NCBI GenBank assembly: GCA_038061795.1
Contig: JBBTYL010000003.1
Span: 64,041-128,040 of the forward strand
DNA: 64,000 nt
Direction: 5' to 3'
DNA from: Patescibacteria group bacterium
Lineage (GTDB): Bacteria; Patescibacteriota; Minisyncoccia; Phycocordibacterales; PALSA-1337
Both the position numbers and the translations under genes were made by a program. The notes beneath the pieces are model-generated. The model ran no database searches. It was not told the DNA's origin and saw only the letters and a list, made by a program, of their open reading frames with translations. Below, piece by piece: positions 3,726 through 45,206 of the stretch; positions within the stretch are counted from its first letter, which is position 1, and each line of letters begins with the position of its first letter.

Positions 3726-3832
3726 AGTTTTCTTAAGGAGCTGATTATTTGCTCCAATAAAAGAATATGAAATTGAGAAAAATTAAAAAAGAGAGGACAT
3801 CCTCGGTAGATTTAATCAAACGAGTTTAATAT

Positions 3833-3867
3833 AAAAAACCACTTTTATCCAAGTTGGATGAAAGTGG
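3833..3867 (-). terminator. Intrinsic terminator of the 3879-4370 gene
   Basis: Minus-sense hairpin CCACTTT..ATCCAActTGGAT..AAAGTGG followed by TTTTTT. Confidence 0.6.
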
Positions 3868-3878
3868 CTCTGAACTGC

Positions 3879-4370
3879 TCAGATTTGCAAGATAACGTCC
3901 TTTTTGCCGAAAAAAGTATGACTTCGATGACGTGTCAAAATCATCATTTTCCCCTTTTCCTCATACTTTTCTCCTCCCAAATGGAATACACCCGAGGACT
4001 CGACCAATTTTTCCTGGTTTTCGAAATCCTTTCCACCCAGTTTTACCATCAACGTCTTAATTATCGTGAAAGTGAAGGAAACTACCTCGGGCAGTGCTTT
4101 TTGTGCAATTTCTTGAGGTTTTAGAGCACCCTCAAATTCCTTAGTGTAGGAATCATGCATTCCTTGCCAAAGGACGCGATATTTTACGACTGTCTTAATT
4201 TTCTCTTCCATCTTTTTCCTTTCCACACAAGACTGAGAAAGAAGAAACTGCTCGTTCAAAAAATCCAGAGCCTCCTCAGGCTTGTAGCTAAAAACCAAAT
4301 TACTCTGTGGTCTTCGCTTCCTTCTGACTGCTTTTTTCTTATTAGTTTTATTCTTTGTTTTTTTGCTCAT
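3879..4370 (-). CDS. Hypothetical protein with a highly basic N-terminus
   Basis: 163-aa ORF starting MSKKTKNKTNKKKAVRRKRRPQ. Has its own terminator. No family recognised. Confidence 0.5.
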   Translation of the reverse strand: MSKKTKNKTNKKKAVRRKRRPQSNLVFSYKPEEALDFLNEQFLLSQSCVERKKMEEKIKTVVKYRVLWQGMHDSYTKEFEGALKPQEIAQKALPEVVSFTFTIIKTLMVKLGGKDFENQEKLVESSGVFHLGGEKYEEKGKMMILTRHRSHTFFGKKDVILQI

Positions 4371-33474: not shown

Positions 33475-33519
33475 TTTGGTGAGTATCTTAAACTCTATCG
33501 CACCACCATCTTCCTAAAC

Positions 33520-33549
33520 TTGACATTATAGTACTAGTGATGCTATAAT
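33520..33549 (+). promoter_or_regulatory. Sigma70-type promoter P1
   Basis: TTGACA (33520-33525), an 18-nt spacer, TATAAT (33544-33549). An AAGGA RBS precedes ATG 33574. Confidence 0.6.
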
Positions 33550-33573
33550 GTTAACTAAGAAAGGATAGCAATT

Positions 33574-33840
33574 ATGAAAGAGTTCCTTGAGTTGGTTTTG
33601 GGAGTTTCAGTGTTGTGGTGCTTTTTGGGATTCGGCCTCTGGCTGTTTCCCTTGAGCCAAGGTCTCATTCACCTCAAAAAGAATGTTTGGTGGAATCTGA
33701 AACGGCATAAGTTCAAATTCAATCTCTGGAAGTCGTTTGACGACGCAGGGATATTTGAAAACATTGTCTGGATCAGTTTTCCACTCAGTCCCATTCCCGC
33801 AACATTGGCACTTACCCTCCTCGTAACCTTGGGTTACTGA
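33574..33840 (+). CDS. Small hydrophobic Trp-rich hypothetical protein
   Basis: 88-aa ORF bracketed by promoter P1 with an RBS and a strong terminator. Confidence 0.45.
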   Translation: MKEFLELVLGVSVLWCFLGFGLWLFPLSQGLIHLKKNVWWNLKRHKFKFNLWKSFDDAGIFENIVWISFPLSPIPATLALTLLVTLGY

Positions 33841-33856
33841 GGTAAAATCGGTTTCG

Positions 33857-33885
33857 GCGGCGATCAGCAATGGTCGCCGCTTTTT
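33857..33885 (+). terminator. Intrinsic terminator
   Basis: GCGGCGA-loop-TCGCCGC followed by TTTTT. Confidence 0.7.
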
Positions 33886-33926
33886 CCTACACCTTAAACT
33901 CTATAAAGCCACCGTCTTTGTCATAC

Positions 33927-33955
33927 TTGACAAATTCTGACAAATTTGCTATGAT
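33927..33955 (+). promoter_or_regulatory. Sigma70-type promoter P2
   Basis: TTGACA (33927-33932), a 17-nt spacer, TATGAT (33950-33955). No ORF follows. Confidence 0.6.
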
Positions 33956-33961
33956 ATTCCT

Positions 33962-34099
33962 AGAACAATCAACTCATGTCGCGTAGTGAAAACTATCGCC
34001 TGAATGAGTCCAGTGCCCTTGCGAGGGGCCTTTCAAGGACGAAACAGGAGTTAAGTTGTTCTGCCCAATCAAGACCCTGGGATTAGTGGGTCTTTTTTT
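33962..34099 (+). ncRNA. Hammerhead-like (type III topology) self-cleaving ribozyme candidate within a ~135-nt non-coding transcript
   Basis: GUC triplet at 33978-33980; stem I 33981-33986/33993-33999; core CUGAAUGA 34000-34007; stem II GUCC/GGAC 34008-34011/34037-34040 with an inner GCCC/GGGC helix; GAA 34041-34043; stem III 34044-34052/33971-33979 (8 of 9 pairs). There is one extra nucleotide relative to CUGANGA. Confidence 0.6.
34072..34099 (+). terminator. Intrinsic terminator of the ribozyme-like RNA
   Basis: AGACCC-loop-GGGTCT followed by T7. Confidence 0.75.
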
Positions 34100-34346
34100 C
34101 TTGCCTAAATTTTAAACTTTACCACATGCTCGTCTCATACTTTTTTACACTAAAGTTTTAAATGCAACTCACTTGCATCTAGATTCAAAAATACTCATAT
34201 TCTTCCTTGAGCCAATTGCAACTAATTTGCATTTACAAAAAGTTACATAGAAAAAGAAGTCTGTATTCTATATCTTTTACTCAAATCCATATTTCTAGCC
34301 ATTTTCCATATTTTGTGATACAGTGAAAACCTGTTAATTTCGCTAT

Positions 34347-35861
34347 ATGCCTAAAAAAACCATAGAAAAAGCTGCATCCCAGCTCATATCGCGTCCCCCT
34401 GTGGTCGTTATCATGGGCCATATTGACCATGGAAAATCTACGCTTCTTGATTACATTCGAAAAACGAATGTCGTAGGGGGCGAAGCTGGAGGAATAACTC
34501 AGCATCTTGGCGCCTATGAAGTCGTTCACGGTAATGGATCCATCACCTTCCTAGACACCCCAGGCCATGAGGCATTCTGCAGCATCCGTGAACGAGGAGC
34601 TCGCGTAGCTGACATCGCAGTGCTTGTCGTATCAGCAGAAGACGGCGTAAAGCCGCAGACGCTTGAGGCTCTGAAGTGCATCCTTGCAGAAAAGATCCCT
34701 TACATAGTCGCAATCAGCAAAATCGACAAGCCTGGAGCAAATATAGAAGTCACCAAGGCAAGCCTCGCGGAAAACGAGGTCTATGTCGAGGGATTCGGCG
34801 GCGATGTCCCAGTCGTACCGATTTCCGCGCTCAAAGGAACAGGGGTCCCCGATCTTCTAGACATGATCATGCTTGTTGCGGACCTCCAAGCCCTCAAGGC
34901 AGACAAGGATATGCTTGCTGAAGGCGCAATCATCGAATCATACCGGGACAGCAAGAAGGGAATTTCTGCCACGCTTCTCATCAAGAACGGAACTCTCAAA
35001 AGCGGAATGTATGTAGTCGCTGAAGATGCCGTTTCCCCTGTTCGAATTCTTGAGGATAATCAGGGCAAGGCTATCAAAGAAGCAAGCTTCTCAAGCCCTG
35101 TGAAAGTCATAGGCTTCAACAAAATTCCAACTGTCGGAGCTATGTTTACTACATGTGCCAACAAGCGCGAAGCAGAAGAGCTTGCGCAGGCCTATAGAAT
35201 GAAGGCGGGTTCAAGCAAGAGCCTTCCAACTCGAGAAAATCCAAACGATACAACGGTCATGATCCCCATCATCATCAAAGCTGACGTTATCGGCAGCCTT
35301 GAGGGCATCAAGCACGAACTCTCAAAGATCAAGAACGATAAGGTAAAGCTCAAGATCGTTTCTGAAAGCATCGGGGATATCAATGAAAATGACATCAAAG
35401 CGACTCAGGGGGATCCGAACATCATTATCGTTGCCTTCAACAGCAAGCCAGATGCAAAGACGGCAACGCTCATCGAACGGTCAACTGTTCAGGTGAAGTC
35501 TTTCGACATTATCTACAACCTCGTAGAATTCCTCAAGCAGACTGTCTTATCCAAGGTTCCAAAGGAATATATTGATCAGGCTTCAGGAACAGCAAAGATC
35601 ATGGCGATCTTCAGCAAGAACAAGGACAAGCAGATTCTTGGAGGGAAAGTGCAGGAGGGATCGCTTTCAGTTGGATCAGAAATAAAGATCCTTCGACGCG
35701 ATGCTGAAATAGGAAGAGGAAAAATAAAAGAGCTTCAGAAGCAGAAAGTAAAGACTGATGAAGTTGCGGAAGGATTTGAATTCGGCTGCATGATCGAATC
35801 AAAGACGGAAATAGCTCAAGGCGATAAAATACAAGGATTCATAACAGTAGAGAAAATATGA
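34347..35861 (+). CDS. infB: Translation initiation factor IF-2 (short form lacking the N-terminal domains)
   Basis: The G domain starts near residue 20 ([28 protein letters not shown]), followed by the C-terminal IF-2 domains. Confidence 0.95.
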
Positions 35862-42738: not shown

Positions 42739-45206
42739 AGACAGATAAGCGAGGCAAGAGAATCTCCATCCCGAAGTTTCATCACGCGCACTCCCTGAGT
42801 AGAACGTCCAAGAGTTGGAATTTCTTTTAGATCGACTCGGATGACCTGGCTCTTCTTTGACATGGCCACCATTTCCTCGATATCGTCAGTAACTACCTTT
42901 GCAGCAATCAACGGACCGGTCTTGTCAGTCACATTCATCGTGAGTATTCCTGAACCGCCTCGGTTCTGAACTTTATATTCTCCGAGCTTCGTCTTCTTTC
43001 CATATCCATGAGAACCCATGACGAACAACGTAGGATTCTTTGCATCCTTTGACACGATATCTGCGCTGATGACTGCATCGTCCTTTCCAAGCTTGATGAC
43101 ACGTACGCCGGTAGCATTTCGTCCCATTTCTCGGACATCTGCTTCTTCAAAGCGGATAGACTGGCCGTCCTGAGTTGCAATAACGATGTTATCGCCCTTT
43201 GTCACGAATGAAGCCGACATGAGCTCATCTCCAGAATCAAGCGTGATAGCGATAAGTCCTGATCGGCGTACGTCGTGGAAATGCTTTGCTGAGCTCTTCT
43301 TACCTGTTCCGTTCTTCGTAACCATCATGAGAGCAAGGCCGTCTGCTTCTTTTTTATTCTTTGGCATCGGCAAAATAGAGGTGATCTTCTCTCCCTCTGC
43401 AAGAGAAAGGAAATTCATAACTGACTTTCCACGAGTAGCTCGCTTTCCTTCTGGAAGATCATACATCTTTATCTGATAGGCCTTTCCTTTATCTGTGAAG
43501 AAAAGAAGATCGTTGTGAGCGCTTGCATAGACAAGATGCGTGATGAAATCCTCTTCTTTCGTATCGAGATCGACAACCCCAACTCCGCCGCGCTTCTGCT
43601 TTCGGTATTCGTCAGGATTTGTTCGCTTGATATAGCCTCCCTTCGTGAGGACAAGCACGCTTTCCTCGTCTGGAATGACATCCTCAGGATTGAAATCCTT
43701 AAGCCCGTGCTTGATAAGCTTCGTTCGTCGATCATCGCCGTATTTCGCCTTGATTTCAGCAAGTTCGTCCTTGATGATGCCCCGAACCTTCTTTTCGCTG
43801 CCAAGGATTTCCTTGAGAGCTTCGATGAGAGCCTGAACTTCTTTGAGCTCATCGAGAACTTTCTTTCGTTCAAGACCTGCAAGCTTCTGGAGTCGCATTT
43901 CGAGAATGGCTGTCGCCTGTCGTTCAGAAAACTTGAACTTCTTCATCAAATTCGCATGCGCTTCTACAGCATCTTTTGAGGCGCGGATAAGAGTGATGAT
44001 TTCATCAATATGATCGAGTGCTTTTTTGAGACCGAGAAGGATATGTTCTCGCTCTTCTGCCTTATTCAAATCAAACTTCGTTCGTCGTCGGATGACTTCG
44101 ACTCGGTGAGCGACGAATTCTTGTAAAATAGATTTCAAAGAAAGTGTCTGCGGCACGCCATTCACGAGCGCAACGATGTTAACATGGAAAGTATCCTCAA
44201 GCTGGGTGTGCTTGTAGATATAGTTGAGGACCTTTTCTGGATGGGCACCGTTCTTGAGGTCAATAACGATTCGCATCTCCTTGTCAGACTCATCTCGGAG
44301 GCCTTTGATGCCCTCGATGGCCTTCTCTCGCACGAGATCAGCGATCTTTACGATGAGATCAGACTTGTTGACTCGGTATGGAATAGAAGAAATGACGATC
44401 TGGTACTGCCCTTTCTTGTCTTCGACAATCTCAGCTTCTCCTCGAACAACAATTCCTCCGCGTCCAGTAGAATACGCATGGTGAATATCCTTTTCACCAT
44501 ACATGATTCCTCCTGTCGGAAAATCAGGACCCTTTATGAATTTCAAAAGGTCTTCGTTCGTAGCGTCCTTGTCTTCAATAAGATGCGTTGTTGCATCAAT
44601 TACTTCATTTAAATTGTGAGGGGCGATGTTTGTCGCCATACCCACGGCAATACCGAGCGTTCCATTCAAAAGAAGGTTTGGAACCGCTGTCGGAAGCACG
44701 CTTGGCTCCTTACGAGTACCATCATAGTTCGGTCGAAAATCAACAGTATCCTTTTCAATATCTCGAAGAAGCTCTGCTGCCGTTCGTGACATTCGAGCCT
44801 CGGTGTATCGCATGGCAGCCGCAGAGTCGCCGTCGATGTTTCCGAAGTTTCCCTGACCTTGAATGAGCTGGTAGCGCATCTTGAAGTCCTGCGCCATACC
44901 GACCATAGAGTCATACACCGCTACGTCGCCGTGCGGATGATAGTTACCGAGTACGTCTCCCACGACCACGGCTGACTTTCGGAACTTTGCAGAGGCAGTG
45001 AGTCCCTTTTCATGCATGGCGTAGAGGATTCGTCGGTGCACAGGCTTAAGCCCGTCGCGCACGTCAGGCAACGCTCGGTCCGTGATAACCGACATGGCGT
45101 AATCAAGAAATGACTCTCTCATTTCTGTCGTGATGTTTCGTGCTACGATGCCTAGCTTTGGATCTCGTGCTTCCGGTTCTGTAATTTCTGGTTCTTTTTT
45201 AGCCAT
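42735..45206 (-). CDS. gyrA: DNA gyrase subunit A
   Basis: [12 protein letters not shown], the active-site region AAMRYTE, and C-terminal beta-pinwheel repeats. Confidence 0.95.

Follow-up and report, generated by a model that had tools for sequence, protein, structure and literature searches.

Positions 33962-34099 (+) of the window (the whole stretch of 64,000 nt from Patescibacteria contig JBBTYL010000003.1 that was analyzed here) contain what we read as a real, independently transcribed small-RNA gene, with a junction core derived from a type III hammerhead ribozyme, carried on a sporadic cassette and cleaving itself slowly at most. Taken as a whole, this reading seems to us evenly balanced between right and wrong. 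Its parts differ in strength: we have high confidence that the RNA is hammerhead-derived and a real gene, its membership in the hammerhead family is putative, and we consider it possible but doubtful that it cleaves itself at a biologically relevant rate.

Transcription unit, fold and core of the RNA

The initial annotation described a stand-alone promoter-RNA-terminator unit encoding a hammerhead-like RNA of type III topology, and on both points our analysis agrees with it. We also confirm the individual features that it listed, from the promoter and terminator to the three helices and the core strand of 8 nt. The gene consists of a promoter, a transcript of about 138 nt that is free of open reading frames (ORFs), and an intrinsic terminator (Table 1); no ORF of at least 40 amino acids overlaps positions 33871-34280 on either strand. 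The terminator hairpin (GACCC..GGGTC followed by T7, at 34073-34099) is not listed by our terminator scan, because its loop of 10 nt exceeds the maximum of 8 nt that the scan allows. The hammerhead-like motif begins at the predicted transcription start and stops just short of the terminator.

When positions 33962-34099 are folded without constraint, the minimum free energy (MFE) structure (-43.1 kcal/mol) consists of a closing helix, two inner hairpins and the terminator–that is, it contains the same three helices as the hammerhead drawing. The strict hammerhead pairing costs 0.4 kcal/mol relative to the MFE and accounts for 19% of the ensemble. The z-score of the MFE is only -2.0. The closing helix (stem III) has 17 bp, begins at the predicted +1 and encloses stems I and II. 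Its 5' strand is composed of stem III proper (33971-33979) and an outer extension (33962-33969), and its 3' strand similarly has a proper part (34044-34052) and an outer extension (34055-34062). The junction strands around stems I and II are C, CUGAAUGA and GAA. The helices are broken near the core: stem I has 3 bp, a bulged U and 4 bp, stem II has 4 bp and then an internal loop, and stem III has 3 bp, an A.G mismatch, 5 bp, a bulge and 8 bp.

The MFE fold, a constrained fold and a motif descriptor all give type III topology, with a single junction of three helices of which only stem III is open, stems I and II each ending in a loop. All 11 of the 11 consensus core nucleotides are present; C3 U4 G5 A6, G8 A9, G12 A13 A14, A15.1-U16.1 and C17 are each in place. 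The A15.1-U16.1 pair is A34044-U33979, H17 is C33980, and the pairs that close the core are G33981-C33999 (1.1-2.1) and G34008-C34040 (10.1-11.1). The core strand CUGAAUGA is 8 nt long and not 7 nt; it keeps the six fixed bases, with one nucleotide inserted between A6 and G8, and its 7-nt counterpart lacking the extra nucleotide would be CTGANGAG. In the survey of Perreault 2011 (PMC3088659), any core change disqualified a candidate. A candidate tertiary contact could link the GAAA loop of stem I to the internal loop of stem II; in the second copy of the RNA described below the former loop is GAAU.

A second copy next to ychF

We scanned metagenomes with the pattern CTGAATGAGNCC-N15-40-GGNCGAAAC and found at least 118 stretches with both core strands. 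Among the matches listed there is one true homolog, in the contig Ga0265338_10000264 (L177), which is an unrelated, Paceibacteria-like metagenome contig, and among the same matches only this one has the three stems besides both core strands. The two copies are 92% identical over 155 nt (nhmmer E = 1.6e-22). The L177 copy has a perfect -35 box, preceded by the same ATAC as in the window, and a weaker extended -10 box (TG-n-TACTGT), and its promoter is not listed by the promoter scan. The start of the RNA (AGAACAA) and its terminator are as in the window. The locus is a different one: the L177 RNA is convergent to an intact ychF gene and abuts the ychF stop codon. Relative to L206, a contig whose YchF protein is 95% identical, L177 contains an insert of about 420 nt at TCTTA^AACTC, which comprises two units; the second is the hammerhead-like RNA unit, and the first is another putative promoter-transcript-terminator unit (Table 1). 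A second, independently located copy of this kind indicates that the RNA is a real gene.

The differences between the copies are unevenly distributed. The outer closing helix differs at 10 of 30 columns and the interior at 3 of the 53 columns that are free of the search pattern (Fisher P = 0.0015), and in spite of these changes the closing helix is still paired (93.8% of cells). We take this as a sign of constraint on the interior, one that is independent of the search pattern.

The RNA is absent from 79 infB loci of relatives of the window (nhmmer, blastn and the covariation model R1), so that the conservation at homologous loci that the initial annotation proposed to look for was not found. 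By model R1 it is also absent from the ychF loci of ten close YchF relatives (15 loci, representing 11 distinct places) and from L080, a contig discussed below. The RNA-less YchF relatives of L177 include ones with 95, 94, 91 and 90% identity, and six more; the nearest relatives of both carriers therefore lack it. In viral contigs the core pattern made only 4 chance matches, in GC-rich coding DNA, and a pattern combining the repeat and the promoter made none; blastn searches of phage and plasmid collections found no match to the RNA. Six-frame peptides of the RNA, used to find spurious ORF calls over homologs, had no match among 5.8 billion proteins, a collection that does not contain the L177 ORF overlapping the RNA.

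Because the RNA is missing at related infB loci, the block that carries it must be an insertion or a replacement, and we rule out a conserved infB leader or regulatory RNA. The position 5' of infB, which the initial annotation had remarked on, is therefore incidental; in L177 the neighbor is ychF. The closest relative, L001, has at a syntenic position (2630-2660) the sequence GGACGAAcCA...GTTCTaCCC, which is like the 3' third of the RNA (GGACGAAaCA...GTTCTgCCC). It was not reported by blastn and we treated it as a chance resemblance, but it could be the remnant of an older copy.

The extra core nucleotide and the case for cleavage

The most natural way to read CUGA-A-UGA is as A6a followed by U7. 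The initial annotation could name no described class with this insertion, but a hammerhead found in nature in which an additional nucleotide ("A6a") follows A6 has been tested and has low activity, attributed to the loss of a hydrogen bond from U4 to the A6-N7 phosphate (Perreault 2011, PMC3088659, PLoS Comput Biol 7:e1002031). By analogy, the insertion in the window is an already described deviation and would be expected to slow catalysis. The extra nucleotide is between A6 and N7 in both RNAs, a likeness that refers to the described insertion position. The contexts differ: those of the earlier study are phage or mobile regions of cultured bacteria, whereas here we have an orphan small-RNA gene in Patescibacteria. 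Further core insertions, U13a and the G2a/C2b of saltern hammerheads, have reduced or condition-dependent activity (PMC3088659), and for an extra nucleotide in a viroid hammerhead Perreault 2011 (PMC3088659) cites De la Pena and Flores 2001. The insertions in CChMVd(+), the saltern hammerheads (G2a/C2b) and U13a resemble ours in being natural single-nucleotide additions to the core, which can go together with activity that is reduced or dependent on conditions, but they are at other core positions. In CChMVd(+), an extra A is located between A9 and G10.1.

In overall design the RNA is closest to the type III hammerheads of plant satellite RNAs (sTRSV/sLTSV; Rfam Hammerhead_3) and to the laboratory hammerhead or RiboJ derived from them, with which it shares the open stem III, the looped stems I and II, the GUC triplet, and the CUGA..GA and GAA strands. 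Its GAGUCC...GGACGAAACAG context is identical to that of the laboratory hammerhead CTGATGAGTCCGTGAGGACGAAAC, a sequence that occurs in 59 papers and derives from sTRSV. The differences are that the core strand has 7 nt in the satellite hammerheads and 8 nt here, that stem II is much longer here and contains an internal loop, that stem III has 17 bp, and that the RNA here has no Rfam score. In addition, the satellite hammerheads belong to circular RNA replicons, whereas this one is a stand-alone bacterial gene with a promoter and a terminator. Bacterial hammerheads near integrases or prophages, which are mostly of type II (Perreault 2011), are similarly found in variable or mobile DNA, but they are inside longer transcripts beside protein genes, whereas ours is a monocistronic unit of ~138 nt on a cassette of ~210 bp. 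No hammerhead in Patescibacteria is reported in the literature that we searched. Hammerheads are widespread and A6a is known; what is unusual is an orphan promoter-ribozyme-terminator gene on a miniature cassette.

On the reading that we favor, the RNA would fold into a hammerhead core enlarged by the A6a nucleotide, and would cleave itself slowly or reversibly, if at all, after C33980. The 5' product of cleavage would be 19 nt long, carry a 2',3'-cyclic phosphate and stay annealed via the 17-bp stem III; the other product would be a body of ~119 nt with a 5'-OH. Because the product would be held by the long stem III, the outcome would be altered 5'-end chemistry or a cleavage-ligation equilibrium, with no release of a fragment.

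Several observations weigh against a functioning hammerhead. Neither positions 33880-34360 (481 nt) nor L177 match an Rfam hammerhead model or any other family even at E ≤ 10, where there is only noise. The extra A6a would be expected to disturb the contact between U4 and the phosphate, and with 17 bp in stem III the products would not be able to separate. Between the two copies stems I and II show no variation, and so no covariation supports them; stem III has 4 one-sided changes, 2 breaks and 0 double changes (MAFFT alignment of two sequences). Conservation of the core in L177 is a circular argument because the search pattern required both core strands, and the known family has only two members. 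In L177 the hammerhead fold, 3.1 kcal/mol less stable than the MFE structure, accounts for ~0.1% of the ensemble; a competing UGAAUG/CGUUCA helix gains strength there from a U-to-G change, and the GAAA tetraloop of stem I reads GAAU. The initial annotation had listed results that would speak against a ribozyme, and we found these in part: both checks that it had proposed, a search with the Rfam hammerhead models and a search for covariation, came back without support, with Rfam scores at noise level and neither conservation nor covariation in related genomes.

At the gathering threshold, Rfam finds only tRNAs in the whole window. As a control of the sensitivity of Rfam we used the genome of phage PaP3 (L219), which has an active core-variant hammerhead according to Perreault 2011 (PMC3088659). 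No hammerhead was found in it at E ≤ 1, but this is a weak control, the threshold being far stricter than the E ≤ 10 applied to the window. With a loose descriptor, a plausible type I candidate with a canonical core appears, among many false matches, in the PaP3 intergenic region between orf66 and orf67 (~44030-44106, minus strand).

The RNA may instead be a non-catalytic structured RNA, for instance with a protein-binding or regulatory role. Its junction would then be either an inactivated hammerhead relic now serving as a scaffold or a three-way junction that came to its U-turn and tandem G.A pairs by convergence. We regard this as unlikely, though it deserves serious attention. It would account for the lack of Rfam hammerhead matches in both copies, for a core insertion of a kind found to be detrimental, for a stem III so long that cleavage is useless for product release, and for the preference of the L177 RNA for another inner fold; the conservation of stems I and II in sequence as well as in structure fits a sequence-specific partner. 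On the other hand, we found no partner protein or target, complementarity to the mRNA of the neighboring ORF88 is at the level of shuffled RNA, and an unrelated junction that has 11 of 11 core nucleotides, H17 and three closing pairs would be very unlikely: by our own estimate, a true three-way junction whose strands measure 1, 8 and 3 nt would have all the core features with a chance of ~1e-5.

A bolder version of the hammerhead reading is that the RNA is an actively self-cleaving A6a-type hammerhead under selection. It would be the payload of an undescribed miniature cassette (promoter, small RNA or small ORF, and terminator, with copies of the ychF 3' end as boundaries) that is mobile between Paceibacteria loci without a recombinase of its own, and processing by the ribozyme, through 5'-OH formation or cleavage-ligation, would belong to the function of the RNA or of the cassette. 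This combination of claims we think improbable.

A chance motif in non-functional spacer DNA left by a rearrangement is very improbable. The modest fold z-score, the many false matches given by loose hammerhead descriptors, and the variability among relatives of the region upstream of infB would all be expected if it were so. A strict descriptor (type III topology, a CTGA..GA core, and perfectly paired stems with minimum lengths of 3/4/3 bp) matches the window at this site only, compared to 0.03 sites per shuffled window and 0 in 1.02 Mb of related loci. This is not decisive by itself, because any single core deviation in any topology would occur far more often. The decisive points are that the motif fills the promoter-to-terminator unit exactly and that a homolog exists, at another locus, which keeps the promoter, the +1 and the terminator and has an interior significantly more conserved than the outer helix. 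Since the motif spans the unit from transcription start to terminator, we judge that it is not a chance match.

The least credible alternative, an RNA antitoxin or antisense regulator acting on the adjacent ORF88 in the manner of a type I toxin-antitoxin system, draws on the location of the RNA directly downstream of, and in tandem with, a small hydrophobic ORF with its own strong promoter, and on a 10/11 complementarity of RNA positions 34001-34011 to ORF88 positions 33661-33671. By our estimate, however, a match of this quality is expected ~0.3 times by chance, and L080 has two substitutions in the complementary stretch. The duplex energy with the ORF88 mRNA (-54.6) is no better than that of shuffles (-55.6 +/- 4.0), and the units occur apart (ORF88 without the RNA in L080, the RNA without ORF88 in L177). 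We rejected such a pair on the grounds of separate occurrence and chance-level complementarity.

Cassettes and the ychF 3' end

The RNA gene is on a cassette of ~210 bp, the second of two tandem promoter-payload-terminator cassettes, the first of which carries ORF88 (Table 1). Three direct repeats (DR1-DR3) bound and split this two-cassette block. DR1 runs on into the -35 box of the ORF88 promoter, and the same repeat is located 5' of the ORF88 cassette in L080. By comparison with native ychF 3' ends, the repeats in reverse complement look like the final codons of YchF (..DGGFIEFKV and ..VVKFKI, each followed by a stop). There is no ychF gene in the window. We saw no recombinase near the cassettes and no integrase within the region studied. 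The neighboring genes in the window code for ClpB, a cysteine desulfurase, a DUF4446 protein, the 88-aa ORF and the RNA, followed by a short IF2, RbfA and tRNAs. Identical contigs come from Hainich groundwater well H41.

ORF88 looks like a real ORF by its pattern of change: its frame is intact relative to the 86% identical copy in L080, the 27 differences between them being at codon positions 1, 2 and 3 in a ratio of 8/6/13. The L080 copy is its only non-identical relative among the 5.8 billion proteins, and it is in a lone cassette at a ychF 3' end, with the same repeats.

Table 1. Features of the small-RNA gene, of the block that contains it, and of the first unit of the L177 insert. Positions are those of the window unless a contig is named.
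Feature	Position	Strand	Basis and remarks
DR1, left boundary repeat of the block	33486-33512		Repeat search, 0 expected by chance; degenerate ychF 3' end
Cassette 1 promoter, TTGACA-18-TATAAT	33520-33549	+	12/12 matches, with TG
ORF88, 88-aa hydrophobic orphan protein, cassette 1 payload	33574-33840	+	2 clusters among 5.8 billion proteins; no Pfam family
Cassette 1 intrinsic terminator	33856-33885	+	Terminator scan; conserved in L080
DR2, repeat between the cassettes	33892-33918		Reverse complement ..FVKYDKDGGFIEFKV and stop, like the YchF C-terminus
RNA-gene promoter, TTGACA-17-TATGAT	33927-33955	+	Promoter scan: 11/12 matches, TG before -10
Closing helix (stem III / P1), 5' strand	33962-33979	+	Begins at predicted transcription start; folds; paired in L177 despite changed sequence
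C17, predicted cleavage site	33980	+	Motif position only; scission predicted between 33980 and 33981
Stem I hairpin, GCGUAGU-GAAA-ACUA(U)CGC	33981-33999	+	MFE fold, coordinates; L177 identical except for the loop
Core strand CUGAAUGA (letters CTGAATGA)	34000-34007	+	Reads C3 U4 G5 A6 A6a U7 G8 A9
Stem II, GUCC/GGAC, internal loop, GCCC/GGGC helix	34008-34040	+	Folds; in L177 a one-G deletion and one U-to-G change
Core strand G12 A13 A14 (GAA)	34041-34043	+	Sequence
Closing helix, 3' strand, first A15.1 C15.2	34044-34062	+	Folds, alignment
Spacer GCCCAAUCAA and intrinsic terminator GACCC..GGGUC-U7	34063-34099	+	Sequence, MFE fold; L177 differs at 3/37 positions
DR3, right boundary repeat	34101-34121		Reverse complement ..VVKFKI and stop; identical to L177 junction with intact ychF
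First unit of L177 insert: TCGACA-17-TACTAT promoter, GC-rich transcript of ~175 nt, terminator	L177 4272-4470	+	No ORF, no Rfam match

The boundaries are degenerate copies of the last ~10 ychF codons (..DG.IEFKI and the stop), and such copies are also seen at 3911-3950 and 4300-4340 in L080 and at 4255-4275 and 4650-4680 in L177. The TTGACA of the -35 boxes of the cassette promoters corresponds to the antisense of the YchF codons V-K. The resemblance suggests that the units insert themselves at the ychF 3' end or duplicate it.

The block is absent in relatives of the window. In L001, whose flanks are ~80% identical, positions 33477-34140 of the window are replaced by ~86 nt consisting of an unrelated 3' untranslated region and a terminator. 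The same block is absent from L002, L003 and others, where the region upstream of infB contains varied small genes or tRNAs. The picture that we draw from these comparisons is one of turnover of small promoter-payload-terminator units at the ychF 3' end, with a block of two such units apparently relocated in front of infB here. We infer that the RNA cassette spreads, or is lost, as a unit.

Other ORF-free units with a promoter and a terminator, and without an Rfam match, share the hot spot downstream of ychF. In L217 and L218 (~2600-2817) there is an RNA unit of ~145 nt on the strand opposite to ychF, abutting the ychF stop in L217, and L207 (~3830-4010) and L209 (~2330-2520) have in common a conserved unit that is convergent with a 73-aa gene. 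The independent contigs L215, L217 and L218 all end 217-219 nt past the ychF stop, as would be expected if assemblies break off at a hot spot that is variable or repeated.

In the infB leader (34156-34238; 2685-2770 in L001), the inverted repeat TGCAAC-N5-TTGCA occurs twice, 54 nt apart, and is kept in this closest relative; the repeats are probably operator sites for a regulator. At 34295-34335 there is an infB promoter-like motif, cTAGCCAaat..tttttcTGATAcAGTaaaa, that is strongly conserved in ~20 loci (L002-L039), 40-80 nt upstream of infB, whereas the sequence farther upstream differs. Finally, in L001 a tRNA gene (2826-2902) whose anticodon loop contains GAT is located between the infB leader and infB, where the window has no tRNA.

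If the RNA cleaves itself, no earlier hammerhead from Patescibacteria would be on record, as far as the literature that we searched goes. The RNA would be unusual as a ribozyme that makes up a whole gene, as opposed to a processing signal within a longer transcript, and it would be a natural test bed for the tolerance of the A6a core insertion. If it does not cleave, it would be an orphan small RNA of the ordinary kind that contains a hammerhead-like relic. Regardless of catalysis, the comparisons show that these reduced genomes acquire and shed tiny promoter-payload-terminator units at the ychF 3' end, with one block moved in front of infB, and cassettes of this kind may offer bacteria of the candidate phyla radiation (CPR) a cheap route to orphan small RNAs and micro-proteins.

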